Assembly (NCBI GenBank): GCA_041441455.1
Contig: JASDTB010000056.1
Span: 2,767-66,766, forward strand
Length of the DNA: 64,000 nt
Source: Bacteroidales bacterium
GTDB lineage: Bacteria > Bacteroidota > Bacteroidia > Bacteroidales > UBA932
Direction of reading: 5' to 3'
The notes beneath the pieces were generated by a model. The model did no database searches and had not been told where the DNA came from. It saw nothing but the letters and a program-made list of their open reading frames with translations. The stretch's first letter is position 1. Every line of letters starts with the position of its first letter. Below are positions 17,932 through 39,592 of the stretch, piece by piece. A program made the translations under genes and the position numbers.

Positions 17932-20739
17932 CTAGTTTTCCGGAGCAAAGATAAATGTCATCCGATTTTTTTGAGAGAAGAGTTGTTGAGCAAATTTCTT
18001 TAGCTCTTTTGATGTGATTTTATCAAAATAGTTCTCTTCGCCAATTGTAAGGTCAACATTGCCTTTGATGCTGTTTTTTAGATCTGCAGCCCAATCGCGT
18101 TTAATAGATTTTTTCTCCTCTACACCTTTTTTAAGGTAGAGCATCACCTCTTTTACCTCTTTATCTGAGACCCCCTCGGTAGTGACTTTTTCAATCTCTT
18201 TTTGTACGATTTCTGCAAGCTCTTGTACAAGCTTAGGATCGGTGTCGAAGTCAACAGATATTCTGAATAGTGGTTGAGGATATTGAATTGTTCCAATACC
18301 AACACCAACATGATATGTGCCACCTTTCTCTTCTCTGATTGATTTCATATACCTCTCTCTAAGGATATATACAAGGAAACGAGCTTTAACATAGTTCTCT
18401 GTTGTATACTCTACTTTTCCAGAATATGATCTATAAAAACTTGCTTTAGAGCTTTTTAAATTTTTTCCTTTGTAGAATAGAGATACTTCTCCTTTGCGTA
18501 CAACAGGTTCTCTGTCTTTAAATTGAGAAGTAGGAGCTGATTTATCAGAAAGGGTCGCGATGTATTTTTCGCAAAGTGCTTTAATCTCCGAAGGTTCTGC
18601 AGGTCCAGAAAGGATATAAGTAAATTGAGACGGAGTGCAGAAGTGAGCATCATAAAGTTTGGAGATGTTTGTTATAGACGCAAGTTCTATCTCCGATGGA
18701 GTGATTTTGCCGCTGAAAGGGTAGTATGAGTATTCTAATTTTTGGCATGTGTCTTTATAGATCTCATGACTTCCAGTTGGCATGGCTAGCTCTTTTAATG
18801 TTTGAGTCTTCGAATAGGCTATATCTTTATCATCGATAGAATATTCCGACATATATAGATTTAGTAACTTGAAGAGATTTTCTGCACTTTTCTTAGTGAA
18901 AGTTCCAGAAAATTCATCGTATCTATAGTCGATAGATGGCTTTAAGGATACATTATTGGCTGCGCACCATTTTGTCATATCCTGTTTTTTGAGTCCACCG
19001 ATAATAAATTGAGAGGTGAATCTCTCCATAAAACGGGTTAGCTTCAGATCTTTTTCATCTGTTGCAGAGTAGCCCCCTTTCTTTATTGCATATAGCTTGA
19101 TATTATCTCCTTGCTCGCCACTCTTTTTGAAAATAACTTTTGCACCATTTGCTAATTGCCAAGTATAAGTTGTGTCTTTGGATATTACTTCGCTCTTTGC
19201 AGCTATAGGTGTCAGATTTTTTTCGAATTGGAGTGTTTTGTTTTTTATAGGCTCGTATTTTGGCAAGTCAGAGTCTTTAATCTCTTTCATGAATTTCAAG
19301 CACTCCTCTTTAGTTGGAAGATTAATAGAGTCTTTTTGAGGACACGCAAAGATTAGCAGACGATTGTCGGCCCTGATCATTTTTGGTGTGAATTCATTAA
19401 CTTGCTCTGTTGTAATGGATTTTAAGCACTCTGTCTGTAGCTTATATCTCTCTTCTGGAGAGATCAATGGCTCATTGCGAGTGAAGTGCTCAACTATTCT
19501 GTTAACATAGTCCTCATTCTTCTGATCTTTAGCTCTGCGGTAGTTGCTCTCTATCTGCTTTTTGACAGCAGGGATTGCTATAGTTAGCTCCTCTTTGCTG
19601 AATCCGTGTTTTGCGACTCTTTCGATCTCTGTAACTACAACTTTAGCTGCGTCAACCATTCTGTTTCCAATTGGAAGTGCTGTAATTGTAAATGTTCTCA
19701 TCGCGTAGCTTATGGCTCCAGTTGCAGGGATTGCTGCTTTTACCATTGAGTCTGCAGGAAGACGGTCACATCTGTTTTTGATCATCTCGCTAACTAAGTT
19801 TTGCATCACTTCGTCGTAGATGAGTTGCTTTGTCTGTTTTTCGGGAGTAGAAACAAATGGGTATTTAATTACGATCCTTGTTGAGTATCCTTTGCTCTCT
19901 GGGTCGGTAATGTAACCAATGATTGGCTCTGCGTTATCGGGAACCGAATAGCTCTCTCTCTTTGCAGGATTTTTTGCCTTTGGAATAGAAGAGAACATCT
20001 TTTTGATTCTGTTTTCGATATCGTTAACATCGATATCTCCAACTACTACTACTGCTTGGAGGTCTGGTCTGTACCATTTGTGGTAGTAGTCAACAAGAGT
20101 TTGAGGTTTAAATGTATTGATGATTTCGGGGAGACCGATTACGTCTCTCTCTGCAAATCTAGACCCAGTCTGTTGAATCTTGAAGATTGCCTTCATCATT
20201 CTTGTTCTCGCATCGTCGCCTCTGCGCCACTCTTCGCGGATAACTCCTCTCTCTGCCTCAATTTCTTTAGGCTCACAAGAGATGTAGTATGACCAATCGT
20301 GAAGTACTAGGAGGGCTGAATCAACGACAGTTGGTCTAACCACTGGAACCGATGATAAGTTGTAGACTGTTCTGTCCATCGAAGTGTAGGCGTTTATATT
20401 TGCACCAAACTTTACACCTATGCTTGCAAAGTATTCAAGCATTTTCTTCTTTGGATAGTGTTTTGTTCCATTGAAAGCCATATGCTCCAGGAAGTGAGCT
20501 AGTCCTCTTTGGTTGCTCTCTTCTTGAAGTGAGCCGACGTTGTGGATGATGAAAAATTCTGCTCTATTGGCAGGATTTTGTGCCTTTCTGATGTAATAGG
20601 TTAGTCCATTTTCGAGCTTACCAATTTTAATCTGTTCATCGACTGGCAGTTTGTCGCCTTTTACAAATTCTTGTGAAAAAGCAAAATGCACACTCATAAC
20701 GAGTATAAGTGTGCATAATGTTTTGTTGAAAAGGGTCAT
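17932..20739 (-). CDS. M16-family zinc peptidase, PqqL-like single chain (935 aa), secreted
   Basis: Signal peptide and inverted zincin motif HFLEHMAFNG (HxxEH). Four-domain length. Paralog of 23230-26037. Confidence 0.85.
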   Translation of the reverse strand: MTLFNKTLCTLILVMSVHFAFSQEFVKGDKLPVDEQIKIGKLENGLTYYIRKAQNPANRAEFFIIHNVGSLQEESNQRGLAHFLEHMAFNGTKHYPKKKMLEYFASIGVKFGANINAYTSMDRTVYNLSSVPVVRPTVVDSALLVLHDWSYYISCEPKEIEAERGVIREEWRRGDDARTRMMKAIFKIQQTGSRFAERDVIGLPEIINTFKPQTLVDYYHKWYRPDLQAVVVVGDIDVNDIENRIKKMFSSIPKAKNPAKRESYSVPDNAEPIIGYITDPESKGYSTRIVIKYPFVSTPEKQTKQLIYDEVMQNLVSEMIKNRCDRLPADSMVKAAIPATGAISYAMRTFTITALPIGNRMVDAAKVVVTEIERVAKHGFSKEELTIAIPAVKKQIESNYRRAKDQKNEDYVNRIVEHFTRNEPLISPEERYKLQTECLKSITTEQVNEFTPKMIRADNRLLIFACPQKDSINLPTKEECLKFMKEIKDSDLPKYEPIKNKTLQFEKNLTPIAAKSEVISKDTTYTWQLANGAKVIFKKSGEQGDNIKLYAIKKGGYSATDEKDLKLTRFMERFTSQFIIGGLKKQDMTKWCAANNVSLKPSIDYRYDEFSGTFTKKSAENLFKLLNLYMSEYSIDDKDIAYSKTQTLKELAMPTGSHEIYKDTCQKLEYSYYPFSGKITPSEIELASITNISKLYDAHFCTPSQFTYILSGPAEPSEIKALCEKYIATLSDKSAPTSQFKDREPVVRKGEVSLFYKGKNLKSSKASFYRSYSGKVEYTTENYVKARFLVYILRERYMKSIREEKGGTYHVGVGIGTIQYPQPLFRISVDFDTDPKLVQELAEIVQKEIEKVTTEGVSDKEVKEVMLYLKKGVEEKKSIKRDWAADLKNSIKGNVDLTIGEENYFDKITSKELKKFAQQLFSQKNRMTFIFAPEN

Positions 20740-22691
20740 TATTTGTTGGTTTTTAAAGTTGCACCAGGTTCTGAGAAGGTAAATTTAGGTTCTACAACCT
20801 GAATCTCTCCCTCTTTAGTTTTTACAGTCCATTTGGTTTTTGTAAGTGCCTTCCATATTTTGTCGTCATTTAAAACCTCTTGCGAGTATTTAATTCTGAA
20901 AACTGGAAGATCGTTATCGTTGAGAGCAGTTTCGATTCCAAGGAAGCCTTCTTGAAGTGAAAGGTGGCTTGAAAGATATGGAATGTTTCTAATGATAAGC
21001 GGTTTATCTAAATCTGTATAAACAATTTCATAAACAGCCTCTTTCTTGCCTGCATATTTTTCTACATTACTTTCGTATTGCTTTTTGTAGAAATGGAATT
21101 GTCTCTCTAAGAACTCTCTCTTTGAAATTGTATCTACTTTGTCTTCAATTGAGATGAATTCGAAGTCAACCTCAACCTTTTTCACTCCACCTCCATGAAC
21201 TGGCATCTGTAGCTCTTTCATCTCAACGGTGTTTTTAATAAAGTCGATATCAATAGGCTCATTGATGTTCATATAAAGTCTGACGATAAGTGGACATGCA
21301 TACTCTGTCTCAAGTCCATAATAGCCTTTTTTACTTAGTCTGAATTGCATTCCCAAATAATTTGGGTCCATCTTGTCAAACATTTTTTCGGTGCGAATAG
21401 TCACAACTTTAACTTGTTTCTCTTCTGCAGGAGGATTAGCTATTCTAAATTTCGCAGGAGTGTAGATTAATTCGCGAATCTTTTCGGGAGTTATTTCACT
21501 TGGAACGTAATAGATTTCAACAGTATGGTGCTTTACATATGTTGCAACACCATATACTCCAGGGATTTTTTGAAGTTGTGCCGAAAATGCTTTTGAACTT
21601 CCGAAGCATTTTACCGAACGTAGTCCATCTACTTGTAGCTTCTCTAGTTTATCGTATTTTGTTTTGTCACCCCACTTTTCGTCAATTGTTGGAAGCTCAT
21701 ATACAGATCCTAAGTAGAGGGCTAAAGCAAACATAACTACAGTCAGGATGGCAGGAAGCCAACGGAGATTCTTTTTTCCAGATATTGTCAGCGCAGACTT
21801 ATTACATGCTGTGATACATTCGCCGCAAAGGGTACAGTCGATGTCTTTAACAGTGTCGGTTTTGCAAACATCAATACCGTAAGGGCATTTTTTTGTGCAA
21901 AGTCCGCAGTCATTACAAAGCTCTTTATCTTTTTTGATTTTTAATATCGGGAAGATATTTGTTTCGTGGTAAACAATCTCTAGAATAAATCCAGTAATAC
22001 AGACAGCCCCCAAGATGTATACCCAAGAAATTGCCAGTCCAGATAGATTTGCTACTGCATAAAGTCCAATCAAGATAACAAATGATATGGTGAATTTGAA
22101 TACATTGCTTAGTGCTCCAAGTGGACAGATGTATTTGCACCAAAACATATCTACAACAAAGTTTCCTATAAAGAAAACTGCGATTGCAGCAATTGCCATC
22201 CATAGAGTCAACTCTCCTTGAAAGCCTGTAGCAAAGGCGTAATAAGGATCGAAGTTCTTACAAAATAGTTCGGAGCTTGAGATGGTGTAATAGAAAATAA
22301 TAAATAATAAGATGTATTTGAATGATCTTAAAATTTTGTCTGCAATTGACTTCGATTTTATTTCGAATGTCTTGATTTTTAGTTTTTTTCTAAGACGGGC
22401 TGTATATTCTCCGATAGTGCCTAATGGGCAGATATATCCACAGAATAGTTTGCTGAAGAGTATTATTCCAACAGCAAGTGCAACTCCCATCATAATTTGG
22501 GTCATTGTCATGCTGCATGCTAGAGATCCATTTACTAGATAAGAGCCTAGAGTTTCAATTCCTCCTAGAGGACAGTATGCCTCAGGATCGGCTGTCTCGT
22601 TTCCGAAGATTTTTGTAAGAAATACTATAATGGCGATTAATGTTCCCCATTGCAATATTGCTTTTGCCGGATTTTTCCACAGAGATTTCAT
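20739..22691 (-). CDS. NapH/NosR-like polytopic 4Fe-4S protein with about 320-aa C-terminal domain of unknown function
   Basis: CX3CP motifs FCGYICPLG and WCKYICPLG in TM helices, two ferredoxin motifs CNDCGLCTKKCP and CTLCGECITAC, then a TM helix and a soluble region with an HMA-like pattern lacking CxxC. Confidence 0.7.
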   Translation of the reverse strand: MKSLWKNPAKAILQWGTLIAIIVFLTKIFGNETADPEAYCPLGGIETLGSYLVNGSLACSMTMTQIMMGVALAVGIILFSKLFCGYICPLGTIGEYTARLRKKLKIKTFEIKSKSIADKILRSFKYILLFIIFYYTISSSELFCKNFDPYYAFATGFQGELTLWMAIAAIAVFFIGNFVVDMFWCKYICPLGALSNVFKFTISFVILIGLYAVANLSGLAISWVYILGAVCITGFILEIVYHETNIFPILKIKKDKELCNDCGLCTKKCPYGIDVCKTDTVKDIDCTLCGECITACNKSALTISGKKNLRWLPAILTVVMFALALYLGSVYELPTIDEKWGDKTKYDKLEKLQVDGLRSVKCFGSSKAFSAQLQKIPGVYGVATYVKHHTVEIYYVPSEITPEKIRELIYTPAKFRIANPPAEEKQVKVVTIRTEKMFDKMDPNYLGMQFRLSKKGYYGLETEYACPLIVRLYMNINEPIDIDFIKNTVEMKELQMPVHGGGVKKVEVDFEFISIEDKVDTISKREFLERQFHFYKKQYESNVEKYAGKKEAVYEIVYTDLDKPLIIRNIPYLSSHLSLQEGFLGIETALNDNDLPVFRIKYSQEVLNDDKIWKALTKTKWTVKTKEGEIQVVEPKFTFSEPGATLKTNK

Positions 22692-22708: not shown

Positions 22709-23047
22709 TTATCGTTTATTCTTTTTTGCATTTTCAGGATCTGCAGCTGCTTTCTCTCTGTATGTTTTGTATCTCTCTTCTCCAATTACTGCTGTTATTT
22801 TTTTTGGCAAGTCTTGTATTACCGCTTTAAGTTTTTCTCTATCGTCGATTACTGCATTTGCCTCTTTTTGGTAATCCATGTAAACAACAATCAGTTTGCT
22901 TGACTCTTCTGGAGTAATTTGAATGTATTTGGTCATGAATGCTACTTTCTCTTTAGCGAACACTTCGGGGGTTTTTCCGTTTTGTGCAGTTGCTGTAACA
23001 GCGAAGAGGCAAACAAAGCCTAACATAATGGCGATAAGTTTTTTCAT
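22709..23047 (-). CDS. Small secreted Lys/Glu-rich protein, unknown function
   Basis: Signal peptide MKKLIAIMLGFVCLFAVTATAQ. 112 aa. First gene of the minus-strand three-gene unit. Confidence 0.45.
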   Translation of the reverse strand: MKKLIAIMLGFVCLFAVTATAQNGKTPEVFAKEKVAFMTKYIQITPEESSKLIVVYMDYQKEANAVIDDREKLKAVIQDLPKKITAVIGEERYKTYREKAAADPENAKKNKR

Positions 23048-23101: not shown

Positions 23102-23144
23102 ATGGTTTAATCATAAATTCGACTCCTATGTTCGATTAAACCAT
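23102..23144. promoter_or_regulatory. Perfect 11-bp inverted repeat ATGGTTTAATC-N21-GATTAAACCAT in the divergent M16 control region
   Basis: Arms at 23102-23112 and 23134-23144, within the 182-bp gap between the starts at 23047 (minus) and 23230 (plus). Confidence 0.4.
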
Positions 23145-23229: not shown

Positions 23230-26037
23230 ATGAAAAAAATAATTGTTCTGACATCTGCTATATTGCTAGCAGTGTTGAACTTAATGGCACAATCTTCTGG
23301 ATATTATACTATTCCAGAGGATAAATCTGTTGTTTCTGGCAAGCTTGCCAACGGAATGACATATTTCATAAAGAAAAATTCTAACCCTGCAGGTAAGGGA
23401 GAATTTTTTATTGTTCACAATGTTGGAGCCATCCAAGAAGAGGATAACCAAGATGGTCTTGCCCATTTTCTTGAACATATGGCTTTCAATGGTACTAAAA
23501 ACTTTCCAGGAAAGACGATGCTCGACTATCTCAATAAAATTGGGGTAAGATTCGGTTATGAGGTTAATGCCTACACATCTAAGGAGAGAACTGTATACAA
23601 CATTTCGAATGTTCCTTTAAATAGAAATTCTGTTGTTGACTCTGTATTGTTAATGCTTCACGATTGGTCTTCTTATATCACCTGCGACCCTAAAGAGATA
23701 AATAAGGAGAGAGGTGTAATTAGAGAAGAGTGGAGATTGGGAGATAATGCAAGAGGTAGAATGTATACTAACACAGCTAAAATTCTTTATACAGGTTCAA
23801 AGTTCGCTGAGCGAGATGTTATTGGTGATACTGCTGTTATAAATAATTTTGTTCCTTCTGTATTGACTGATTTCTATCATAAATGGTATAGACCCGATCT
23901 ACAAGCAATTGTATTAGTTGGAGATTTTGATGTTAAAGAGATTGAGAAAAAAGTTGTGTCACTGTTCTCAAAGATTCCAAAAGTAGCTAAACCATCTGCG
24001 AAAATAAATTATTCAGTTCCTCAGAATGATAAACCAATTTTGGGATACTTTACTGACCCTGAGTCAAGAGCATTGTCAGTAAAGTTATATTATAAACATA
24101 AAGCGCCTACAGCCGAATTAAAGCATTCTACAAAGAGTATTCATGATAAGTTGGCTATTACGCTTGCTGTAAATATGCTTGGTAAGAAGCTTGATATTGC
24201 GAAAGATAAACCAGGAGCATTGTATCGCACCGCAGTTGCAGTAACCGGCGACGGCAATGGCGATATGAATTACATTCAGATGACTGTCTCACCAATCGGG
24301 AAAAACCTCAAGGACGCTTTTAAAGGTTTGGTAACCGATATGAAGAGAGTGAAAAAATATGGTTTTTCTGAAAAGGATCTTGCATTATCTAAAGAGGACA
24401 TGCTCAAAAAGAATGCAGTGAATATTAACTCAATGGCAGACTTAAAGAACGGACAGTACGTTGAGTATATTGTTAGACACTTCACTCAAGATGAACCATT
24501 AATTACAGACAGAGAGCGTCTACAGTTGGAGCGTAAGATCTTAGAAGAGATTACACTGAATGATATTAACTCTTCTTTAAATAGAATTTTTCCAGATAGC
24601 AACAGAGTATTTGTATTTGCAGGAAATATTGCAGATAAAGAGACTTTTCCTTCTGAGTCTTTCGTTTTATCCGAGATCTATAAAGACATTGATAAAACAT
24701 TGACTCCTTTTGAAGAGCATGCAATTGCAAAGGATTTATATGATTTTTCAAAGATTTCTGCTGGAAAGATTATTGAAGAAAAGGCTGCCAATCAGTTTGG
24801 ATATAAGGAGTGGAGACTATCCAACGGTCTAATTGTTTATTGGGCTCCAAATAATGAAAATGGGGCGAAGATTCATATCCATGGTGAGTCAGATGGAGGT
24901 TTAATTCATATGTCAACAAATGATCTTACTAAAGGTAAGATGATCAGTAATATTTCAAGGATAAAGGGTTTAGGTAATTTGAACGATAAAGAGCTTAAAG
25001 CATTTATGATCGGTAAGACTTCTGGTGTTTTTTATAGTATCGGAAGAGATGCGAAAGTGCTAGATGCCTCTTCTGAAAAGAGTGATGCTGAGTTGTTGAT
25101 GAAACAAGTCTATTTAAACTTTACTAAGCCAGTATTTGACTCTCTTTCATATGTGAAATTTATTGATCGCCAGAAGGAGATGATGAAAGATATGTCTGAA
25201 GAGATAATTTATATGGATAGTGTTACAAACTTTATTTACTCTGGTAGCCCTATTGTAAAGAGTCTTAAGTCAAAAGACTTAGAAGGTCTCGTATACAACG
25301 AAGTTGTTGATTACTACAGAAAAACTATGTGCAATGCAACAGGATTCAAATTTGTATTTTCGGGACCTATTTCTGAGAGTGATGCTAAAATATTGGTTGA
25401 GAGATATTTGGCTACACTACCTGTTCTCCCTGTCAATTTGAAAGTTATCAATTCTTCCCCTATTTATGCAAAAGGGTGTAAAAATATGACATTTAAGTCT
25501 AAAACAGCCACTACGCCTAGAACTGTGATTTCGGTATTGTATTCTGGAGATATGAAATATAGTGCTGAAAATTATATTAAACTTTCAATTTTAAGATATG
25601 TTTTGTCTGACAGATATTTAAACAGCATACGTGAGGAAAAAGGTGGTGCTTACTACGTTTCAGTAGCAGATCAGGTGTTTGTAAAACCGCAGAATAGAGT
25701 ATCTTTGAGAGTTGATTTCGAAACTGATCCAAAATTAAGTTACGATTTGTTAGCACTTGTTCAAAGTGAGATCGATAAAATTGTAAAGGAGGGGCCAGAG
25801 CAAAGATCTGTTAATGATGCAGTTCTATTTATGAAAAAGAAGTTTGGTGAGGCGGAATCGAAAAAGGCTTTCAATGAGGCAAGATTTACGAGCATGCTGT
25901 TTGAAGGTGTTGACCTGTATGATGGATATGTAAAAATGTTGGAAAAGATTACACCAGCCGACTTAAGAAAATTTGCCGCTGAATTGTTTAAGCAAAACAA
26001 TAAATTGACTATGATAAAAGAACCTGAAACGAAATAA
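23230..26037 (+). CDS. M16-family zinc peptidase, PqqL-like single chain (935 aa), secreted
   Basis: Signal peptide and HFLEHMAFNG (HxxEH). Long stretches align with the 17932-20739 product, for example HNVGxxQEExNQxGLAHFLEHMAFNGTK. Confidence 0.85.
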   Translation: MKKIIVLTSAILLAVLNLMAQSSGYYTIPEDKSVVSGKLANGMTYFIKKNSNPAGKGEFFIVHNVGAIQEEDNQDGLAHFLEHMAFNGTKNFPGKTMLDYLNKIGVRFGYEVNAYTSKERTVYNISNVPLNRNSVVDSVLLMLHDWSSYITCDPKEINKERGVIREEWRLGDNARGRMYTNTAKILYTGSKFAERDVIGDTAVINNFVPSVLTDFYHKWYRPDLQAIVLVGDFDVKEIEKKVVSLFSKIPKVAKPSAKINYSVPQNDKPILGYFTDPESRALSVKLYYKHKAPTAELKHSTKSIHDKLAITLAVNMLGKKLDIAKDKPGALYRTAVAVTGDGNGDMNYIQMTVSPIGKNLKDAFKGLVTDMKRVKKYGFSEKDLALSKEDMLKKNAVNINSMADLKNGQYVEYIVRHFTQDEPLITDRERLQLERKILEEITLNDINSSLNRIFPDSNRVFVFAGNIADKETFPSESFVLSEIYKDIDKTLTPFEEHAIAKDLYDFSKISAGKIIEEKAANQFGYKEWRLSNGLIVYWAPNNENGAKIHIHGESDGGLIHMSTNDLTKGKMISNISRIKGLGNLNDKELKAFMIGKTSGVFYSIGRDAKVLDASSEKSDAELLMKQVYLNFTKPVFDSLSYVKFIDRQKEMMKDMSEEIIYMDSVTNFIYSGSPIVKSLKSKDLEGLVYNEVVDYYRKTMCNATGFKFVFSGPISESDAKILVERYLATLPVLPVNLKVINSSPIYAKGCKNMTFKSKTATTPRTVISVLYSGDMKYSAENYIKLSILRYVLSDRYLNSIREEKGGAYYVSVADQVFVKPQNRVSLRVDFETDPKLSYDLLALVQSEIDKIVKEGPEQRSVNDAVLFMKKKFGEAESKKAFNEARFTSMLFEGVDLYDGYVKMLEKITPADLRKFAAELFKQNNKLTMIKEPETK

Positions 26038-28893: not shown

Positions 28894-28904
28894 AAAGAAT
28901 AGAG

Positions 28905-30143: not shown

Positions 30144-31765
30144 TGACAACAAAGATGAAAAACAAGACACTATATATAGCAGGAATATTGGCTTTGAGTC
30201 TTCAAATAAGTACACTCAGAGCTCAGGAAGTTGCTGATAAAAGTTTCTACTCTTTCGAAAGAATTGAGTTAAAGACTCCTTGGCTTACTTCGGAAAATGG
30301 TGCAGGCCTTGTGTTTAACAAGGTTAAGGACTTCTCTACAGTTGGTGGATACTTTTCAAACCAAAGCGGAGATTATACAAATTATAATGACCCGCAAGTA
30401 TATGAATCGTTTGGTCTTTCTACGAAGTCGTATATGAAGGTTAAAAAGTTCTATTTTTATGGTAGTTTCGGATATGATTATGGAGTTAGACAAAATCAAT
30501 CTTGGCTAGGAACTATTTATCCTAATACAGCACTTAATCCTATTTGCGATTCTGTGCCAGGTAAAGTACTTAGAGAGGACTATTTTTTAGCAGCTAAGAT
30601 TGGCTACAAGGTTAATGATAAGTATTCTTTGGGAGTAGCGTTTGATTATCATACAGCAACAGGGGCCAAAAGAAAAGATGGACGAAATAGTAATGTGTTT
30701 TCTGATTTCTCTGTACGCCCAGGTGTAACATTTAATTCAAAATACCTAACACTTGGTTTAAATGCGAATTATAGCCACTCGGTTGAGAGAGTTGAATACA
30801 AATACTTAGGCGATGTAACTGGTAAAAGTCTCTATTATTTTGAACCCTTCTTTTTCTATACAGAGTCTGGTATTAACTCGTCTTCAACTTACAAGAGAGG
30901 CTACTTTTCCGATATCTTTGGTGGTGCTTTACAAGTAGAGCTGAAGCTAGGGAAACTAGCTTTTTATAACCAATTGCAAGTTAACTATACTAGGGAAAAT
31001 GATTTTGAAGATAATAATTTATTAAAGAGGTATGCCACTATTGACGGCTTAAAATATAAGTATAATGGAGTTGCTAAGTATTCTACTAAGTTTGTTGATC
31101 ATATAGTAAACTTAAGATTCATTAGTGATGAGACTTTTTCGTATAATGTAATAAATAATTATGAAAGAGTACCTGGGGAAAACAATGTGTGGGCATATTT
31201 CGAATACGGTAAAGATTTGAGATATATTCAAACATCAAAGAATTATGGTGCAGAATACAACGCATATCTTAAAAAGAGCGAATGGTTAATAGATTGGACA
31301 TTTTCAGCAGGATTCAATTATTTTGAGATCGACAAACAATATAAAGTATACCCTGCAAAATACGAACAAAATTACAATTTGTCTGAAGTGTACGGGTCAG
31401 TTGCCAAAAGTGTAATGACCAGCGATTTGTCTAAATTGGATTTATCTGTTGGATATGGATATACATTTGGAAAAGGTGATATGTTAAAGACTCAGAACCC
31501 TTTAACAACTGGAGCCTTAAAACAAAATGAAAAGCTATTATATGCAGATTTTATGTACAACACTGCCAACAAATATAGATTCTCATTTGCTTCAAAATTC
31601 ACATATGCTGTAGAACCGAAATCGGGTAAATCAGTTTACGCCGCATTTAAAGCTACTCATATACAATTACCTCAAGCACCAATACGTGACGGAATTATTT
31701 TTAGTCAATATTCTGGAGGAGCTAACAGAGGTTATTATGAATTCTCTTTTGGATTCAACTTCTAA
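30143..31765 (+). CDS. Second outer-membrane beta-barrel protein (DUF6850-like), triad copy 1
   Basis: Signal peptide, alternating Tyr/Gly/Asn-rich strands, C-terminal FSFGFNF. Its start overlaps the upstream stop (TAATG). Paralog of 57957-59516. Confidence 0.6.
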   Translation: MTTKMKNKTLYIAGILALSLQISTLRAQEVADKSFYSFERIELKTPWLTSENGAGLVFNKVKDFSTVGGYFSNQSGDYTNYNDPQVYESFGLSTKSYMKVKKFYFYGSFGYDYGVRQNQSWLGTIYPNTALNPICDSVPGKVLREDYFLAAKIGYKVNDKYSLGVAFDYHTATGAKRKDGRNSNVFSDFSVRPGVTFNSKYLTLGLNANYSHSVERVEYKYLGDVTGKSLYYFEPFFFYTESGINSSSTYKRGYFSDIFGGALQVELKLGKLAFYNQLQVNYTRENDFEDNNLLKRYATIDGLKYKYNGVAKYSTKFVDHIVNLRFISDETFSYNVINNYERVPGENNVWAYFEYGKDLRYIQTSKNYGAEYNAYLKKSEWLIDWTFSAGFNYFEIDKQYKVYPAKYEQNYNLSEVYGSVAKSVMTSDLSKLDLSVGYGYTFGKGDMLKTQNPLTTGALKQNEKLLYADFMYNTANKYRFSFASKFTYAVEPKSGKSVYAAFKATHIQLPQAPIRDGIIFSQYSGGANRGYYEFSFGFNF

Positions 31766-31784
31766 CAAACAATCATATCTTATA

Positions 31785-31819
31785 GAGTTGCCGATGAAAA
31801 TCGGCAGCTCTTTTATTTT
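31785..31819 (+). terminator. Rho-independent terminator after the second-barrel gene of triad 1
   Basis: 10-bp stem GAGTTGCCGA/TCGGCAGCTC (one G-U pair), loop TGAAAA, then TTTTATTTT. It ends 18 nt before the S46 ATG. Confidence 0.7.
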
Positions 31820-31836: not shown

Positions 31837-34017
31837 ATGTTAAAAAAATCAATCGCAACTATCGCACTTCTCACGATTGTTGCTTTCAAAACTTATGCAG
31901 ATGAGGGAATGTGGCTGGTCAATTTACTTGACAAACAGCTTTATGCTCAAATGAAGGCCAAAGGACTGAAATTGTCTGCAAATGAGATATATAACGACAA
32001 AGGTGGAGCGATTTCCGATGCCATAGTAGCTATTGACGGCGGAAGCTGCAGTGGAAGCATCATCTCAGCGGAGGGTCTAATGATTACGAACCACCACTGT
32101 GCATATGGAGATGTTCATAAGCTAAGTACTAAAGATAAAAACTACCTCGAAGATGGTTTTTGGGCAATGACTCGCGACCAAGAGGTTCCAATCAAAGGTA
32201 AACAAGTTACATTTCTAAGAAGAGTAATTGATGTTACCGATGAGACAAACAGAGTAATCGATAGCTTGGATAAGGCTGGACCTCGTGGACTATTCTTTAT
32301 GAACAAAGTCTCAGGTGTGTTTGAAAAAAGATATAGCAATCAACCATACGAAGTTGCATTAATGTCTATGTGGAGAGGTAGTAAATACTACTTGTACTTC
32401 TATGAAACATACAAAGATATTCGCCTTGTTGGAGCACCTCCTGTCTCTATCGGAGCATTTGGAGGCGAAACCGACAACTGGGGCTGGCCTCAGCACAAAG
32501 GAGACTTTGCAATGTATAGAGTCTATGCAAACAAAGAGGGAAAACCAGCAGAATATTCTAAAGATAATGTTCCATTGAAAGCAGCAAAATACCTTACTGT
32601 CTCGTCTAAAGGAGTAAACAAAGATGATTTTACAATGGTACTTGGATATCCAGGATCGACAAATCGTTACACATCTTCTTTTGAACTAAAGGAGAAGTAC
32701 GAGATCCTCAATCCAGTAATCAGTGGAATCAGGAGAGCTAAACTCGAAGTCTGGAAAAAATATATGGATGCAAGTCCTGCAGTAAGATTAAAATATGCCG
32801 ATAAATACTTCGGAATCAGTAATTATACCGACTATGCTAAGTGGGAAAATATCTGCATTGGAAGATATAAAATCATTTCACAGATAGAAAAGAGAGAGAA
32901 GGAACTTCAGGCATGGATTGCAGCCAATCCAGAGAGAGTAGCAAAATATGGGAAGGTGATTGAAAATCTGAAAAACGGATACGCATCAAAAGCGGAGATT
33001 ACAAGAATCAAAGAGAATTTCAGAGAGTCAATGGTGAGAGGTGCAGAATTTGTCGCAATTGCGTCTAGGATGAACTCAATGGCGAGCTCTCTTAAAAAAG
33101 CTGGAAAGACAAAATTCTCAATGGAAGACAAATCTGTTGCTGAATATGTCAATAAATTTGCAGCGAAACAATATGATGAGTCCGACATTAAGGCAGACAG
33201 AGAGCTATTTAAAGTTATGCTTGGCTATTATTTGAAAAACGTACCATCATCATTTTATGATAAAGAGTTTAAAAAGATGGCAGAAGGTCTTGGCAACGAT
33301 CCAATTAAAATTGCCGACTATGTTTACGACAACAGTATTATCACAGACTCGGTTCGTCTTAGAAATTTTTTCAATTCAGAGAGAACAATCGAAGAGCTAC
33401 TTGCAGATCCAGTAATTACAGTTGTTAAAACAACAGGAATCATTCCATACAACAAAGTGGAAGATAGAATTTTAGACAGCGTAAATGTCTCTTTAGGAAA
33501 AGAGAAAACTCTCTATACAAAAGCACTGTACGAAATGTATCAAGAGAAGGGTAAAGCGATCTCTCCTGACGCTAACTCAACAATGAGAGTGACTTTTGGA
33601 GAAGTTGGCCCAATTGAACCTGCTGACGGAATCTACTACCACTATCAAACAACAACAAAAGGGATAGAAGAGAAATATGATCCAAAGAATTATGAGTTCA
33701 ATCTTAAACCAGAGATGCAGAAAAAATTAGAGACATCAGATTGGGGCAGATGGGGCAAAAATGGTAAATTATATGTAAATTTCCTCGCAGATATGGATAT
33801 AACTGGAGGTAACTCCGGAAGCGCAGTGCTAAATGGAAGTGGAGAGTTGATAGGATTAGCATTTGATGGAAACAGAGAGTCGATGAGCGGAGATGTCTTC
33901 TTTAAGGAGGGCTATTGCAAATCGGTGTGTGTTGACATCAGATATGTTATGTGGGTTATCGAAAAATATGCAGGAGCAAGTAATATTATCAAGGAATTAA
34001 AAATCAACGATAAATAA
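31837..34017 (+). CDS. S46-family dipeptidyl-peptidase (DPP7-like)
   Basis: Signal peptide then ADEGMWL, catalytic His in ITNHHCAYGD, catalytic Ser in TGGNSGSAV; 726 aa. Confidence 0.9.
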   Translation: MLKKSIATIALLTIVAFKTYADEGMWLVNLLDKQLYAQMKAKGLKLSANEIYNDKGGAISDAIVAIDGGSCSGSIISAEGLMITNHHCAYGDVHKLSTKDKNYLEDGFWAMTRDQEVPIKGKQVTFLRRVIDVTDETNRVIDSLDKAGPRGLFFMNKVSGVFEKRYSNQPYEVALMSMWRGSKYYLYFYETYKDIRLVGAPPVSIGAFGGETDNWGWPQHKGDFAMYRVYANKEGKPAEYSKDNVPLKAAKYLTVSSKGVNKDDFTMVLGYPGSTNRYTSSFELKEKYEILNPVISGIRRAKLEVWKKYMDASPAVRLKYADKYFGISNYTDYAKWENICIGRYKIISQIEKREKELQAWIAANPERVAKYGKVIENLKNGYASKAEITRIKENFRESMVRGAEFVAIASRMNSMASSLKKAGKTKFSMEDKSVAEYVNKFAAKQYDESDIKADRELFKVMLGYYLKNVPSSFYDKEFKKMAEGLGNDPIKIADYVYDNSIITDSVRLRNFFNSERTIEELLADPVITVVKTTGIIPYNKVEDRILDSVNVSLGKEKTLYTKALYEMYQEKGKAISPDANSTMRVTFGEVGPIEPADGIYYHYQTTTKGIEEKYDPKNYEFNLKPEMQKKLETSDWGRWGKNGKLYVNFLADMDITGGNSGSAVLNGSGELIGLAFDGNRESMSGDVFFKEGYCKSVCVDIRYVMWVIEKYAGASNIIKELKINDK

Positions 34018-34019
34018 TT

Positions 34020-36197
34020 ATGCTAAAAAAATTGACAATTGCCCTTGTGGCATTAACCATACTGTTTCCCTCTTTTTCAAGAGCGGACGAAGGTATGTGG
34101 CTTGTGAATATGTTCGAGAAGAGCATTTACCCTCAAATGGTAAAAAAAGGTCTTAAATTGACTTCGAAAGAGATTTATAATGAAGAGAATGACGCTGCGC
34201 TTAGCAACGCAATTGTCTCATTAGATTTTGGTTGTACTGGCAGTATGATCTCCGATAAGGGACTAATGATTACAAATCACCACTGTGCCTATGGTGACAT
34301 ACATGCACTTAGTACTCCAGAAAAGAACTATCTCGAAGATGGTTTCTGGGCAATGAACCAATCAGAGGAGAAGCCAATACCTGGTAAAAATGTACTTTTC
34401 CTTAGAAAGGTGATTGATGTAACCGACGAAGTAAAAGCAGATGTAGCAGAACTACAAAAGCAAGGATTCAAAGGCGCAATCATGAGAAGAGTATTCAAAC
34501 ATATTGAGATGCGCTATAAGGAGAAGAATAATCTCGAAGCAATGTGTGCATCAATGTGGAGCTCTACTAAATTCTATATGTTTTTGTACGAAGTATATTC
34601 AGACGTTCGTTTAGTTGGAGCACCTCCAGTTTCAATCGGAGCATTCGGTGGTGAGACAGACAACTGGGGATGGCCACAACATAAAGGTGATTTTGCAATT
34701 TATAGAGTTTATGCCGACAAAGATGGCAAACCAGCAAAATATTCTGCAGAGAATAAACCATTGATGCCTAAGAGAGTATTGAACATCTCAACAAAAGGTG
34801 TTAAAGAGAATGATTACTCAATGATTCTTGGATACCCTGGAAAGATCAATCGCTATGTATCATCATTTGAGGTGAAAGAGAAACAAGAGATTTTGAATCC
34901 AATTGTTGTAGAGATCAGAAGAGCAAAACTTGATGTTTGGAAGAAACATATGGATGCCAATCCTACTGTAAGACTTAAATATTCTGATAAATATTTCGGA
35001 ATCAGCAACTATACCGACTATGCAAAATGGGAGAACAAATGCTTTATCAGATACGATGTTATAAGTATTAGAGAACAAGAGGAGAGAGAGCTTGCTAAAT
35101 GGATTGAGTCAGATCCAAAGGCTAAGGAAAAATATGGCGACCTGCTTGCTAAGTTAGAAAAAGGATTTGCAGCAAGAGCTGAACTGATAAAACAAAAGGC
35201 TTACTTCAGAGAGTCATTTGTTTCAATTTCGGAAGTTGTGCAATCTGCTAAGAGATTTGGAAATGTAACTCGTGACATGGAGAAGGGTGGAATCGAGAAG
35301 ATTTCTGCTAATGATCAGATGTTTAAAACAGAGTATGCAGCAATTCAAAGATCACTTTATGATGTTTATGATTTAGCGACAGATAGAGATCTATTCCGCC
35401 AACAATTAGCGTTCTTTATCAAATATGTTAAACCAGAATATTATGGTGGAGCACTTGCTAAATGGGTTAAAGAGTACAACGGAGATGCAGGCAGAATTGC
35501 AGACTATATCTATGACAACTCAATCTTTACTCAAAAAGATAAACTTTACAAATACTTTGAAACACCAAGATCGAAAGAGGAGATATTGTCTGATCCAGCA
35601 ATTTTATTGGCAGAGTCTTGCTCTATCCAAACATTCAATGAGATAACCAATAAAATGATCACTCAGCTTGGATTCGATACTGAGGCTTTAACTTCACAAT
35701 ACACTAGAGCTCTTTATCAAATGAGAGAGTCAAAAGGTCTTCCACAATACCCAGATGCAAACTCAACTATGCGTATTACATACGGAACAGTAGGTGGCAT
35801 CCAACCCGCTGATGGTATTACTTATGGCTATAGAACAACTATTAAGGGTTACCTTGAGAAAAAAGATCAGACTAATTACGAGTTCAACGTAAAACCTAAG
35901 CTAGAGGCGATAATTAAAGCTAAAGACTGGGGAAGATGGGGCGAAAACGGTCAGCTTTATGTAAACTTCTTAACCAATAATGACATTACAGGAGGCAATT
36001 CAGGAAGTCCAGTAATCAATGGAAAAGGCGAATTAATTGGACTTGCTTTCGATGGAAACAGAGAGTCGATGAGTGGTGATGCATACTTCCATCCTGAATA
36101 TTTCAAAACCGTTTGTGTAGATATCAGATTTGTCCTTTGGGTAGTCGATAAATATGCAGGAGCGGGTTATCTAATTAACGAAATGAAACTTAAGTAA
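34020..36197 (+). CDS. S46-family dipeptidyl-peptidase (DPP7-like), tandem paralog
   Basis: ADEGMWL, ITNHHCAYGD, TGGNSGSPV; 725 aa. Starts 3 nt after the previous stop. Confidence 0.9.
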   Translation: MLKKLTIALVALTILFPSFSRADEGMWLVNMFEKSIYPQMVKKGLKLTSKEIYNEENDAALSNAIVSLDFGCTGSMISDKGLMITNHHCAYGDIHALSTPEKNYLEDGFWAMNQSEEKPIPGKNVLFLRKVIDVTDEVKADVAELQKQGFKGAIMRRVFKHIEMRYKEKNNLEAMCASMWSSTKFYMFLYEVYSDVRLVGAPPVSIGAFGGETDNWGWPQHKGDFAIYRVYADKDGKPAKYSAENKPLMPKRVLNISTKGVKENDYSMILGYPGKINRYVSSFEVKEKQEILNPIVVEIRRAKLDVWKKHMDANPTVRLKYSDKYFGISNYTDYAKWENKCFIRYDVISIREQEERELAKWIESDPKAKEKYGDLLAKLEKGFAARAELIKQKAYFRESFVSISEVVQSAKRFGNVTRDMEKGGIEKISANDQMFKTEYAAIQRSLYDVYDLATDRDLFRQQLAFFIKYVKPEYYGGALAKWVKEYNGDAGRIADYIYDNSIFTQKDKLYKYFETPRSKEEILSDPAILLAESCSIQTFNEITNKMITQLGFDTEALTSQYTRALYQMRESKGLPQYPDANSTMRITYGTVGGIQPADGITYGYRTTIKGYLEKKDQTNYEFNVKPKLEAIIKAKDWGRWGENGQLYVNFLTNNDITGGNSGSPVINGKGELIGLAFDGNRESMSGDAYFHPEYFKTVCVDIRFVLWVVDKYAGAGYLINEMKLK

Positions 36198-36205: not shown

Positions 36206-37888
36206 ATGTTTAAAAGATTAGTTGTACTTATTTCTATGACATGGGCCGGATTATATCCGGCCTTTTGTCAAGATAGAATGCTCGATTTGCTCAAAACAGA
36301 GCTTCAGAGCCAGATGACAGAACTTGGCAAGGGAGAGTATCCTCCGTATTATATGAACTACCGTGTAATTGATAACTACAGTAGAGTAATAAAGGCCTCT
36401 ATGGGAGCTGTCAACACCGTTGAGACAGAGAGACAGATTATTTTTGTTCCACAAGTACGTGTAGGCTCTCCAGAATTTGATAACTTCAATGAGTCTCAAA
36501 ACGGAGTAGTAGTAAATAGATTTGCGGGTCCACCTACAATTTTGCTCCCGTACGATACAAAATTAGGAATTGAAAGCTTCACAGAGATAATCCGCGAAGA
36601 GGTGAATTCAAGATATAAGTTTGCCGTTTCAAATTTTGAAAGAGCAAAAGCAAAAAGAGGTGTGAAAGTAGAAAACGTAGATAAATCTGCCGATTTTACA
36701 AAAGCCAAAGCTGAAAAATATTTTGAACCAGTTCTTAAAGACGACAAAACTCAATTAGATATTAAAGCTTGGGAGAAAAAACTCAACAAATACAGCGGAT
36801 TCTTTGCTGACAATAAAGATATTATCAGCGCAAATGCGACAATGAGTTTTAAAATCTGGAGGAAATACTTTGTTTCAACCGAAGGGGCTGAGGTTGCAGA
36901 GAATAGAACATATGTTTTGCTAAGCATCAGAGCGATGACTATGGCAGAAGATGGAATGGAACTCCCTCTTCATAAGAGCTATTTTGCATTCTTCCCCGAA
37001 GAGTTACCATCGGAGGCTGAGATTATGAACGATCTAAAACAGATGTCCGCAAAACTTAGTAAGTTGAAAGTTGCCCCATTAGTACAACCCTATACCGGAC
37101 CTGCTTTACTTTCTGGTTCGGCAAGTGGTGTATTCTTCCATGAGATCTTTGGACATAGGATAGAGGGTCAAAAGATGAAAAGCGATAGCGATGGTCAGAC
37201 ATTTAAAAATATGGTAAATGAATATGTTCTGCCTAAGGCTATCAGCGTTTTATGTGATCCTACAATGAAAAAATTCAAAGGAAGTCCATTAAACGGTTAT
37301 TACATTTTTGATGATCAAGGTGTAAGGGGAAAAAGGGTTGAAGTTGTAAAAGATGGAATCCTTAAAAACTTCTTGATGACTAGAACAGGTCTGGAAGGAT
37401 TTCCTGAATCCAATGGTCATGCAAGAGCAGAGTTTGAATATGATCCTACTTCGCGCCAATCTAACTTAATAGTTGAGACAAACAATTATAAGACAGATGC
37501 TGAGCTTCGTGCACTTCTAATCTCTGAGGCAAAGAAACAGGGTAAAGAGTATGGATACTTCTTTAAAGCCGTTACTGGCGGATTTACTCAGACAGGAAGA
37601 AGTGGTGCAAATTCGTTTAATGTTACTCCTTTAGAGGTATATAGAGTGTATGTGGATGGAAGAGAAGATGAATTGGTGAGAGGTGTCGATATGATTGGCA
37701 CACCTTTGTCGATGTTTTCAAATATTGAACATGCAGGTGGAGAATACGAAATCTTTACAGGTACATGTGGTGCTTCGTCTGGTAATGTCCCAGTAACAGC
37801 GATCTCTCCAACTATCTTTGTCAATAAGGTTGAATTACAGAAAAAACCGAAACCATCAGTAACTCCGGCATTGTTGCCAAGACCATAA
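36206..37888 (+). CDS. TldD-like metallopeptidase with signal peptide
   Basis: HEIFGH (HExxxH, nt 37139-37156) in the TldD-like context GVFFHEIFGHRIEG. The N-terminal hydrophobic leader ends at AFC. Confidence 0.75.
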   Translation: MFKRLVVLISMTWAGLYPAFCQDRMLDLLKTELQSQMTELGKGEYPPYYMNYRVIDNYSRVIKASMGAVNTVETERQIIFVPQVRVGSPEFDNFNESQNGVVVNRFAGPPTILLPYDTKLGIESFTEIIREEVNSRYKFAVSNFERAKAKRGVKVENVDKSADFTKAKAEKYFEPVLKDDKTQLDIKAWEKKLNKYSGFFADNKDIISANATMSFKIWRKYFVSTEGAEVAENRTYVLLSIRAMTMAEDGMELPLHKSYFAFFPEELPSEAEIMNDLKQMSAKLSKLKVAPLVQPYTGPALLSGSASGVFFHEIFGHRIEGQKMKSDSDGQTFKNMVNEYVLPKAISVLCDPTMKKFKGSPLNGYYIFDDQGVRGKRVEVVKDGILKNFLMTRTGLEGFPESNGHARAEFEYDPTSRQSNLIVETNNYKTDAELRALLISEAKKQGKEYGYFFKAVTGGFTQTGRSGANSFNVTPLEVYRVYVDGREDELVRGVDMIGTPLSMFSNIEHAGGEYEIFTGTCGASSGNVPVTAISPTIFVNKVELQKKPKPSVTPALLPRP

Positions 37889-37906: not shown

Positions 37907-39592
37907 ATGAGAAAATTTATAAATATATTACTCATACTCATTTGTTTGTCTGCTACAACTTATGCTCAGACAAATGACAACATCCTTTTCAAAGCGATGG
38001 AGGATGAGATGAAAAGAGCAGAAAAAGATCTCAAACTGCCAGGAGCTCCTCCTATATATTTCATTTCTTGCACTGTCAGTGAAAACAGATATGTCTCAAT
38101 AACTAGCAGTAAGGGCTCGGTTGTTTATGTTAAAGAGAGTCCAAAGGAGAGAATGCACTCGATCAATTTATATGTTGGAAACAGTAAATTATCTAGTGAC
38201 TACTCATACTCTGGAAATGGTATGGTATCGCAGCAATTCACAACTAGCGACGATAATTATGATCAATTAAGGAGAAATTTTTGGCAGACATATGATCTAG
38301 CATACAAATTTGCAGTTGAAGTTTATAATTCAAAGAAGAATAACTTAAAGACAGCAAATTTAAGCGACGAAGAGAAAGCATTAGAAGATATAACTCCTTT
38401 GAAGAAAATTGAGGTATATGCACCACATTTAGAGCAATATACACTTGATAAAAAAACTCTTTCCGATCTAGCAGATAAGATATCTCTTAAAATTTCGGAG
38501 GTAAAGGGCATCTTTGATGCAAAGGCAGAGATTGATGGAATTGAAAATGTTTATTACTATGTTTCAAACGAAGGAACAAAGGTTAAAGAGCCTGTAGCAT
38601 ATATCCGTATTACAATGTCTGCAAAAATCAGGAACTCTAAAAAACAGGTTGTCAAAGATAAAAGAGTGTTTTATGCCAAAAGCACTCAAAAACTACCTAC
38701 AGAGTCCGAGTTATTGAGTATGGCTTCGAGTTTTGCAAATGATCTCTCTTCGATGTACGACATTAATTCGGTAGATGAGTATTACTTAGGTCCAGTATTA
38801 TTTGTAGAAGAGGCTGCCGGTGCTGTGTTTGCAGAAAATATTGCAGGCCAGTCAGGTGTACTTTCATTCCGCAAACCAATCCAAGTTATGGCAACTGTAG
38901 CGCGCCCCGAGAATGTTGGAAACATGAAAAATATCAAACCACTCGAAGAGAGAATAGGTAAAAAGGTTGTTGATAGTAGAATCTCAGTAATGAATATCAC
39001 CTCTAATATTAAGTTTGGAGGTAATGAGTTATTGGGCTCATATTTATACGATGCCCAAGGAGTAAAAGCCAAAGACAGTGTGATACTAATTCAGAATGGA
39101 ATTCTTAAAACTCTGTTAAGTACAAGAGTGCCAACTCTTAAAATTAAAGAGAGTACAGGCAGCCTTAGATTTGGGGTCAAACCTAGAGCAATTTCACTAG
39201 CTCAAGCACCTGGAAATTTAGTAATTAAGTCTGCTTCAACTGCCAACTGCGACAGTCTTAAGCGAATGTTGATTGCCTCTGCAAAAGAGGAGGGATTGGA
39301 CTATTGCTACATCGTCAAAAAAATAGCGGCTTATGATGAGATTAAACTAGTTAAAGTTAATGTAGCAGATGGAAGCGAAAAGATTGTTACTGGAGCAGAG
39401 ATTGGAGTGATTCCATTTACAAAGCTTAAAAGAGTTTTGGGTGTATCTGCAGAACAAAGTTTGTTTAACTATCTGTTCAACGATGAGATTCCTGTTTCTG
39501 TTGTCCACCCTAAAGGTATCTTGATCGAGGATGTTGAGATTGACAAGAAGCCACTCTCTGTTCAGAAGGAGTCAAAATTAATTATTAACTAA
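37907..39592 (+). CDS. PmbA/TldE-like partner protein with signal peptide (no HExxxH)
   Basis: Similar length and layout to the upstream TldD-like protein, but the equivalent segment reads GAVFAENIAGQ, so the metal site is absent. Signal peptide LLILICLSATTYAQ. Confidence 0.6.
   Translation: MRKFINILLILICLSATTYAQTNDNILFKAMEDEMKRAEKDLKLPGAPPIYFISCTVSENRYVSITSSKGSVVYVKESPKERMHSINLYVGNSKLSSDYSYSGNGMVSQQFTTSDDNYDQLRRNFWQTYDLAYKFAVEVYNSKKNNLKTANLSDEEKALEDITPLKKIEVYAPHLEQYTLDKKTLSDLADKISLKISEVKGIFDAKAEIDGIENVYYYVSNEGTKVKEPVAYIRITMSAKIRNSKKQVVKDKRVFYAKSTQKLPTESELLSMASSFANDLSSMYDINSVDEYYLGPVLFVEEAAGAVFAENIAGQSGVLSFRKPIQVMATVARPENVGNMKNIKPLEERIGKKVVDSRISVMNITSNIKFGGNELLGSYLYDAQGVKAKDSVILIQNGILKTLLSTRVPTLKIKESTGSLRFGVKPRAISLAQAPGNLVIKSASTANCDSLKRMLIASAKEEGLDYCYIVKKIAAYDEIKLVKVNVADGSEKIVTGAEIGVIPFTKLKRVLGVSAEQSLFNYLFNDEIPVSVVHPKGILIEDVEIDKKPLSVQKESKLIIN

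Follow-up and report, generated by a model that had tools for sequence, protein, structure and literature searches.

A conserved Bacteroidales gene cluster of envelope peptidases, a TonB-dependent receptor and a membrane polyferredoxin, with a probable role in coupled import, proteolysis and reduction

We analyzed a 64,000-nucleotide stretch of DNA (hereafter the window) from a Bacteroidales bacterium (GenBank assembly GCA_041441455.1, contig JASDTB010000056.1, positions 2,767 to 66,766 of the forward strand), which has a G+C content of about 36-37% and whose nearest relatives are uncultured Bacteroidales. The window contains a gene cluster encoding a membrane polyferredoxin that we refer to as Fer, two M16 and two S46 peptidases, a TldD/PmbA-like pair, and an outer-membrane module composed of a TonB-dependent receptor (TBDR), a DUF4876 lipoprotein, and a DUF6850 beta-barrel. 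The cluster is real and is conserved in many Bacteroidales, and we estimate a probability of roughly 60% that the region functions as one coupled envelope system for import, proteolysis, and reduction. A preliminary description of this DNA, whose gene coordinates and sizes we confirmed, had noted a peptidase-dense locus resembling a protease-associated import system, but it was silent on Fer, which of all genes in the cluster shows the strongest conservation and the tightest linkage, and on a secreted protein of 112 aa. Taking Fer into account probably changes the likely function of the system, and we regard this polyferredoxin as the unexplained and most interesting part of the locus. A prior description of a Fer-S46-M16-TBDR cluster was not found in the literature. 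The genes on which the argument rests are the following (window coordinates, strand, product, and evidence):

20739..22691, minus strand: Fer, 650-aa NapH/CcoG-like polyferredoxin with seven transmembrane (TM) helices (Pfam Fer4_5/Fer4)
17932..20739, minus strand: M16a, periplasmic zinc metallopeptidase of the PqqL/FusC class (Pfam M16+M16_C)
23230..26037, plus strand: M16b, second metallopeptidase of the PqqL/FusC class (Pfam M16+M16_C)
26065..28893, plus strand: TBDR, non-SusC TonB-dependent receptor (Pfam CarboxypepD_reg+Plug+barrel)
28905..30143, plus strand: DUF4876 lipoprotein, putative receptor lid (Pfam; lipobox; PDB 4q1z)
30143..31765, plus strand: DUF6850, plug-less outer-membrane beta-barrel (Pfam; AlphaFold2 model; C-terminal Phe)
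31837..34017, plus strand: S46a dipeptidyl-peptidase (Pfam Peptidase_S46)
34020..36197, plus strand: S46b dipeptidyl-peptidase, orthologue of the S46 that follows Fer in most relatives (Pfam Peptidase_S46)
36206..37888, plus strand: secreted TldD-like metallopeptidase (Pfam PmbA_TldD_3rd)
37907..39592, plus strand: secreted PmbA-like partner of the TldD-like protein (Pfam PmbA_TldD_3rd)

Linkage of Fer, peptidases, and receptor across Bacteroidales

A Fer-anchored scan of species-representative genomes returned at least 569 stretches, and the best 80 loci were analyzed; linkage counts out of 52 refer to loci with at least 8 kb on both sides of Fer, and counts of a downstream S46 gene out of 74 to loci with enough flank. 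In 63 of 74 loci, the gene that immediately follows Fer on the same strand encodes an S46 peptidase. Among the loci with long flanks, S46 occurs in 48/52, the TBDR together with DUF4876 in 34/52, M16 in 24/52, and TldD/PmbA in 5/52. The preliminary description had likened the pairing of M16 and receptor to the Fus and YddB/PqqL systems and had included the TldD/PmbA pair; in these counts M16 is not a constant partner of the receptor, S46 being found twice as often, and TldD/PmbA is linked only rarely. De novo clustering of open reading frames (ORFs) from the Fer-anchored loci recovered DUF6850 in 50 loci, DUF4876 in 48, the TBDR in 46, and M16 in 35; an Mfa-like/Fib_succ lipoprotein was recovered from 16 loci and a C69 dipeptidase from 14. 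The most frequent gene order is TBDR-DUF4876-DUF6850-(M16 or Mfa-like)-Fer-S46-(M16). Order and orientation vary among Alistipes/Rikenellaceae, Odoribacter, Butyricimonas, Fermentimonas, and Marinifilaceae, but the proximity of the genes stays, and because the clustering recurs across Bacteroidales families it is far beyond what chance would give. Cultured carriers include Odoribacter laneus YIT 12061, Butyricimonas muris, and Alistipes hominis (loci L039, L040, and L057). Fer is also the best-conserved gene of the cluster in the 80 species-representative genomes, with 45-72% identity across Bacteroidales versus 30-50% for the M16 proteins.

We also surveyed metagenomes using the receptor as the anchor. 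Where receptors were at least 32.5% identical, Fer was present in 25/29 loci and S46 in 27/29, and below 32.5% identity paralogues without Fer appear; at 36% identity or more, M16 was present in 15/18 TBDR-anchored loci. Two distant Fer homologues, with 26-33% tail identity, keep TBDR-DUF4876-DUF6850 plus S46 or S9: locus L177 has the order TBDR-DUF4876-DUF6850-Mfa-like-Fer-S46, and L179 has both an S46 and an S9 peptidase beside Fer-TBDR-DUF4876-DUF6850. The arrangement closest to that of the window is found in L004, where the sole difference is the relocation of the Fer-linked S46 gene beside the other S46 gene. Three loci (L001-L003) are without the TBDR module, which raised the possibility of an unrelated insertion, and we rejected this explanation because the wider surveys show the linkage. 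Apart from this, a Fer-S46 pair of typical Bacteroidales kind (57% identity) was found on one 5.4-kb contig (L025, CAVIKQ010000113.1) whose bin is assigned to Eggerthellaceae (Actinomycetota), and the contig is probably mis-binned.

Architecture and conserved cysteines of the polyferredoxin

Fer contains two CX3CP motifs and two 4Fe-4S motifs (CxxCxxCxxxCP). Its NCBIfam matches to NapH/MauN, NosR, CcoG, and MerTP are all below cutoff, with scores of 74.6 bits for the NapH subfamily (cutoff 213) and 24.2 for CcoG (cutoff 316.7), and the match to MerTP, which consists of a TM helix plus an HMA domain, is weak. No nap or cco genes are present in the window, and judged by the cutoffs and by gene context Fer is not a member of the NapH/MauN or CcoG families. 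The AlphaFold2 model of Fer (pLDDT 84.4, pTM 0.70) has seven TM helices, with the Fe-S domain predicted between TM6 and TM7 and a tail after TM7 (approximately residues 331-650) modeled as repeated beta-alpha-beta units, the first of which would have an HMA fold. From the positive-inside rule and the AlphaFold2 secondary structure, we infer that the N-terminus, the CX3CP motifs, and the Fe-S domain are cytoplasmic and that the tail is periplasmic.

When the complete Fer model was searched with Foldseek, nothing matched along the entire chain (best E 0.013), and the first tail domain matched the HMA domains of CopZ, MNK1, and MerP (TM-scores 0.63-0.73, root-mean-square deviation 1.7-2.8 Å). The loop of this HMA-like domain is CxGS, not CxxC, with a single conserved cysteine (Cys362), and the Pfam HMA domain was matched in only some Fer homologues. 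Among 1.84 billion proteins the tail falls into 155 representative clusters, always within the 640-650-aa architecture. Candidates for a tail standing alone or fused elsewhere were rejected, as the short matches proved to be truncated gene calls of the same architecture.

Sixteen cysteines are kept in nearly all full-length Fer members, down to about 24% tail identity. Two exceptions (P0270 and P0332) have lost C40, C59, C144, and C362 jointly and retained the CX3CP motifs, and we read the four cysteines, which are predicted to be periplasmic, as one functional site. Of these two proteins, P0270 is also without the first 4Fe-4S motif and its gene adjoins a PepSY_TM_like_2 gene; P0332 retains both 4Fe-4S motifs.

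Receptor module, peptidases, and gene organization

The TBDR and DUF4876 belong to the class of DUF4876-lidded non-SusC TonB-dependent transporters. The TBDR had no SusC (TIGR04056) match in the NCBIfam search; BLASTP against E. coli YddB gave fragments only (E=0.09), and phmmer against the PDB returned only the plug regions of Cir, YncD, and PqqU, with FusA and YddB not among the matches. On the evidence of these comparisons, the receptor is not within the FusA/YddB clade. The TBDR-DUF4876 pair is intact in all 43 of the 43 TBDR-anchored loci with at least 9 kb of downstream flank. The DUF4876 product matches a structural-genomics lipoprotein (4q1z, E 3.5e-19), and DUF4876 has been proposed as the lid lipoprotein of non-SusC transporters in Bacteroides (bioRxiv 10.1101/2023.03.17.533168). 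The AlphaFold2 model of DUF6850 is a plug-less barrel of about 20 strands (pLDDT 82.6, pTM 0.78) for which Foldseek found only generic large-barrel matches (TM-scores 0.3-0.38), and our literature search found nothing on this family. These two proteins, assigned by Pfam, are the extra outer-membrane partners of the receptor that had been pointed out in the preliminary description.

Two same-species metagenome contigs (L087 and L088) are 97-100% identical to the window in the flanks of 26400-31811, but within it identity at the DNA level falls to 70-82% in DUF4876, in DUF6850, and in the receptor past its first ~120-150 residues. The divergent stretch ends on the right at a terminator hairpin (31784-31811), and the protein database holds three DUF6850 alleles, with 100, 86, and 72% identity. 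The outer-membrane module looks like a divergent allelic cassette, subject to recombination exchange or diversifying selection, between near-identical strains. A second, paralogous TBDR-DUF4876-DUF6850 module is located at 53832-59516, within 51657-63919 on the plus strand, and the two receptors of the window share 29% identity. This second module is flanked by three HEAT-repeat proteins of 717-740 aa, recalling BT1933-39 of Bacteroides thetaiotaomicron, and no peptidases or Fer were seen near it (51657-63919).

The two M16 genes are divergent, as had been reported, and each encodes a 935-aa protein with the motif AHFLEHMAFNG (HFLEHMAFNG in the preliminary description); their mutual identity is 38%. 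The top PDB match of both is 9LDY (E about 1e-140), an unpublished, Bacteroidota-like entry titled only "Peptidase, M16 family", on which we found no literature. The next matches, to PqqL (6ofs, E 7e-60 and 2e-80) and FusC (6b03, E 3e-48 and 4e-52), are full-length, and the remaining M16 families in the PDB match through the N-terminal domain alone with E of at least 1e-17. M16b shares 23% identity with E. coli PqqL across 864 residues. By homology, both are assigned to the secreted, single-chain, four-domain PqqL/FusC class, which agrees with their earlier designation as PqqL-like. The concern that they might instead fall in unrelated M16 families without receptor synteny is answered by this class assignment and by the synteny of the module and peptidases in many relatives. 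M16b adjoins the TBDR in the same orientation across the 27-nt gap noted previously, which is unstructured, and an M16 gene adjoins the receptor module in 6 other loci; in the Fer-anchored survey, M16 lies within 10 kb in 15/34 of the loci that hold a TBDR.

Pfam likewise places two S46 genes ahead of a TldD/PmbA-like pair, the arrangement originally given. S46a and S46b are 54% identical and overall nearest to DPP11 structures in the PDB, where DPP7 structures were matched as well. Aligned to 4xzy, both have Gly at the position of Arg673 in PgDPP11 (FDGNRE versus FDRNWE). We take Arg673 to give PgDPP11 its specificity for Asp/Glu at P1, and Gly at this position to be DPP7-type; therefore, neither S46 protein is expected to be acid-specific, and their predicted specificity should not be of the DPP11 type. 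An M3 oligopeptidase is found near the cluster in L001, L010, L012, L013, L029, L090, L106, and L118. A C69 dipeptidase joins it in L053, L153, L155, and L164-L166, an S9 peptidase in L179, and a fimbrillin-like lipoprotein (Mfa_like_1+Fib_succ_major) in L059 and L120-L137. BT3630, beside the DUF4876 genes of B. thetaiotaomicron, is likewise annotated as fimbrillin-like. The remaining features of the locus are:

17900..17920, no strand assigned: terminator-like hairpin closing the likely minus-strand operon (-15.1 kcal/mol, z -4.3, T tract)
22709..23047, minus strand: 112-aa secreted protein, first gene of the likely minus-strand operon (ORF, signal peptide)
23102..23144, no strand assigned: perfect 11-nt inverted repeat ATGGTTTAATC-N21-GATTAAACCAT, candidate operator in the 182-nt divergent intergenic region
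31784..31811, plus strand: strong T-tract hairpin that separates DUF6850 from S46a (-21.4 kcal/mol, z -7.4), at the right edge of the apparent allelic cassette
42885..44981, minus strand: M3 oligopeptidase, a peripheral neighbor retained in the closest relatives

The stop of Fer and the start of M16a overlap at 20739, and the genes for the 112-aa protein, Fer, and M16a likely form a single minus-strand operon. Further likely units are M16b-TBDR-DUF4876-DUF6850, with 11 nt between the TBDR and DUF4876, and S46a-S46b-TldD-PmbA; as the hairpin at 31784-31811 parts DUF6850 from the S46 genes, the plus strand probably has two transcription units. Judged by eye from their N-termini, all soluble products have Sec-type signal peptides and the DUF4876 product alone has a lipobox (LSVSAC), in keeping with the earlier statement that every soluble product carries one or the other. 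The arms of the inverted repeat are retained in L088 despite a diverged spacer, and it is possible that the repeat is an operator between two divergent operons. The 112-aa protein has zero Pfam or NCBIfam matches and was seen elsewhere only in L088. The promoter consensus in Bacteroidota differs from the sigma-70 type, and a sigma-70 scan was uninformative (56 sites versus 64.8 expected).

A MarR gene, a P-type ATPase gene beside M16a, and a convergent MFS gene are not conserved neighbors and were left out of the system. An insertion at 12331-17624, between GH16 and M16a, encodes a TonB-dependent receptor of the OMP_b-brl_3 type, a P2-type cation ATPase, and a MarR regulator; in L004, GH16 directly adjoins the M16 gene. 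There are also redox-related genes for a DsbD_2/CcdA-like membrane protein beside an ArsP-type permease (4062-6106, minus strand) and for a small FMN_bind-domain protein beside a DUF6146 protein (41242-41706, minus strand), and no conserved link of either to the cluster was seen.

Proposed function, alternatives, and comparison with known systems

In the coupled system that we propose, the TBDR, the DUF4876 protein as its likely lid, and the DUF6850 barrel would take up the cargo. The recurrent partners are all envelope peptide-degrading enzymes (M16, S46, C69, S9, M3, and TldD/PmbA), and the cargo is therefore most simply a peptide or small protein. In the periplasm it would be degraded by the two M16 endopeptidases, the two S46 peptidases without the Asp/Glu-specifying Arg, and the TldD/PmbA pair, with C69 dipeptidases or S9 peptidases contributing in other species. 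These enzymes might act in the order M16, then S46, then TldD/PmbA, the cascade supposed in the preliminary description. Fer would pass electrons from its two cytoplasmic 4Fe-4S clusters through the two CX3CP motifs to the four-cysteine site, formed by periplasmic loops and the HMA-fold domain, and would there carry out a reduction, acting either on the cargo or on the products of its proteolysis. The step that we somewhat favor is one in which a redox metal (Fe or Cu) bound to the peptide is reduced or captured; alternatively, Fer may reduce disulfides that block exopeptidases.

Several lines of observation suggest that a redox-active metal may be involved. CcoG, a cupric reductase, is the nearest characterized protein type to Fer. 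In the distant relative L175, Fer has TBDR-DUF4876-DUF6850 on one side and ABC_tran-DUF4857 on the other; the B. thetaiotaomicron cluster BT3625-33, which iron depletion induces 37-128-fold, has two PepSY_TM proteins in the corresponding place (PMC10434189). The distant Fer homologue P0270, with its PepSY_TM_like_2 neighbor, adds to this clue. The paralogous PG1019-22 (up to 214-fold) and BT1933-39 belong to iron or haem-limitation stimulons and have been termed uncharacterized transport systems. In addition, PqqL and FusC are iron-regulated periplasmic proteases of TonB-dependent transporter import systems (PMC6793856).

Several points weigh against a metal-directed coupled system. The iron-regulation data come from paralogous modules that are about 30% identical or less, and the second module of the window looks like the BT1938-39 type. 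Two Fer homologues (L171 and L173) have no receptor or peptidase nearby, and an inner-membrane metal or peptide transporter consistently linked to the cluster was not found. The S46, C69, S9, and M3 enzymes are general nutritional peptidases of asaccharolytic Bacteroidales, for which a metal is not required, and the hairpin at 31784-31811 suggests that the S46 and TldD genes are transcribed apart from the receptor.

The leading alternative, which we regard as somewhat unlikely, is that the locus is purely nutritional and imports oligopeptides for amino-acid fermentation. Here Fer would be a trans-membrane disulfide or sulfoxide reductase, with no metal involved, that linearizes oxidized, cystine-linked host or dietary peptides for M16 and S46. 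The tightest linkage is indeed that of Fer and S46 (63/74 loci), and a disulfide-reducing role in nutritional peptide breakdown matches it equally well. The general peptidases C69, S9, M3, and TldD/PmbA recur, the carriers are proteolytic Bacteroidales, and a DsbD_N protein adjoins the cluster in L003; the Cys-Pro motifs at the membrane face and the four conserved periplasmic thiols, including the CxxS of the HMA-like loop, would fit a thiol relay. However, the HMA fold and the similarity of Fer to NapH/CcoG are better matched by metal or electron transfer than by thiol exchange, Fer takes the place of PepSY_TM proteins in a peptidase-free ABC/DUF4857 context, and paralogous TBDR-DUF4876 modules respond to iron and not to peptide supply.

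A true Fus or YddB-PqqL type of system, in which the receptor takes in a folded iron protein (for instance a ferredoxin), M16 cleaves it for its iron, and the other peptidases are incidental clean-up, appears improbable to us. The PqqL/FusC class of the M16 proteins, the position of M16b next to the receptor, the high frequency of M16 at loci with receptors at least 36% identical (15/18), and the iron regulation of related modules all speak for it. However, about half of the Fer/S46/TBDR loci are without M16, the receptor lies outside the FusA/YddB clade, no TonB (FusB-like) or ABC (FusD/YddA-like) domain is present in any product of 12331-44981, and protease-associated import systems have been defined only from proteobacterial FusA homologues (PMC6793856). 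The Fus-type likeness put forward in the preliminary description accordingly stands for the M16 class, its adjacency to the receptor, and their co-orientation, and falls for the receptor clade and for FusB/FusD. Finally, we consider it very unlikely that housekeeping periplasmic peptidases, an unrelated receptor, and an unrelated redox protein are neighbors merely by descent or genomic convenience: the hairpin points to separate transcription units and the receptor module and M16 are both non-universal, but proximity survives rearrangements, inversions, and insertions in several families, to 26% Fer-tail identity, and the Fer- and TBDR-anchored surveys yield the same partners.

Within the coupled import, proteolysis, and reduction system, it is intriguing to consider a more specific and quite speculative form, namely a piracy machine that spans the envelope and is present in many Bacteroidales. 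The lidded receptor would import small metal-bearing peptides or proteins (for example ferredoxins, rubredoxins, or metallothionein-like peptides) originating from the host, the diet, or dead cells. The polypeptide would then be stripped by M16, S46, and C69, and the four-cysteine/HMA site of Fer would reduce and capture the Fe, Cu, or cluster set free, with the surface module under diversifying selection. If true, the Bacteroidota would have a counterpart of Fus that brings its own reductase, and Fer would represent a new class of trans-membrane Fe-S electron conduit. To date, only the FusA-clade systems of Proteobacteria have been shown to couple protein or peptide import to proteolysis in the periplasm. 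The same logic may be built from different parts in at least 569 stretches of species-representative genomes, including the human-gut Alistipes, Odoribacter, and Butyricimonas, always with an uncharacterized membrane polyferredoxin. This provides testable partners for four families (DUF4876, DUF6850, Fer, and the periplasmic PqqL-like M16) and links the iron-starvation-induced "uncharacterized transport systems" of Porphyromonas gingivalis and B. thetaiotaomicron to a possible mechanism. The strain-variable surface cassette may also bear on phage or bacteriocin targeting.

Among known proteins, CcoG and NapH/NosR resemble Fer in being polytopic, with CX3CP motifs and two cytoplasmic 4Fe-4S clusters, and CcoG has one further TM helix and a C-terminal domain located in the periplasm. 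In contrast to them, Fer occurs in a context without nap, nos, or cco genes, scores far under the family cutoffs, and has a rare HMA-fold tail. P. gingivalis uses the RagAB importer and degrades peptides with periplasmic DPP4, DPP5, DPP7, and DPP11, and the likeness to the cluster lies in TonB-dependent oligopeptide import followed by S46 cleavage to dipeptides in the periplasm. However, RagAB is of the SusCD type and its genes are not located with those of the DPPs, and we know of no polyferredoxin or M16 partner described for it. The DUF4876-lidded transporters BT1939/38, BT3633-31, and PG1020/19 share the same module of receptor and DUF4876 lipoprotein, and BT3625-33 further encodes a lipoprotein resembling fimbrillin and proteins resembling membrane reductases, but these clusters carry PepSY_TM/ABC/DUF4857 or HEAT proteins instead of Fer and peptidases.

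The Fus and YddB-PqqL systems (PMC6793856) share with the cluster a TonB-dependent transporter gene adjoining that of a secreted, single-chain M16 peptidase of the PqqL/FusC class, the principle that import precedes proteolysis in the periplasm, and a tie of related modules to iron limitation. They differ in that the receptor of the window is related to theirs only by its generic fold and adds a lipoprotein lid and a second barrel, that M16 is optional and S46 and the polyferredoxin are constant, and that the host belongs to the Bacteroidota and not the Proteobacteria, to which the defined protease-associated import systems are confined. Because its receptor is outside the FusA/YddB clade and homologues of FusB and FusD are absent, the locus is not a member of the Fus family, but it plausibly follows the same logic of import and periplasmic proteolysis, joined by a reductive step.

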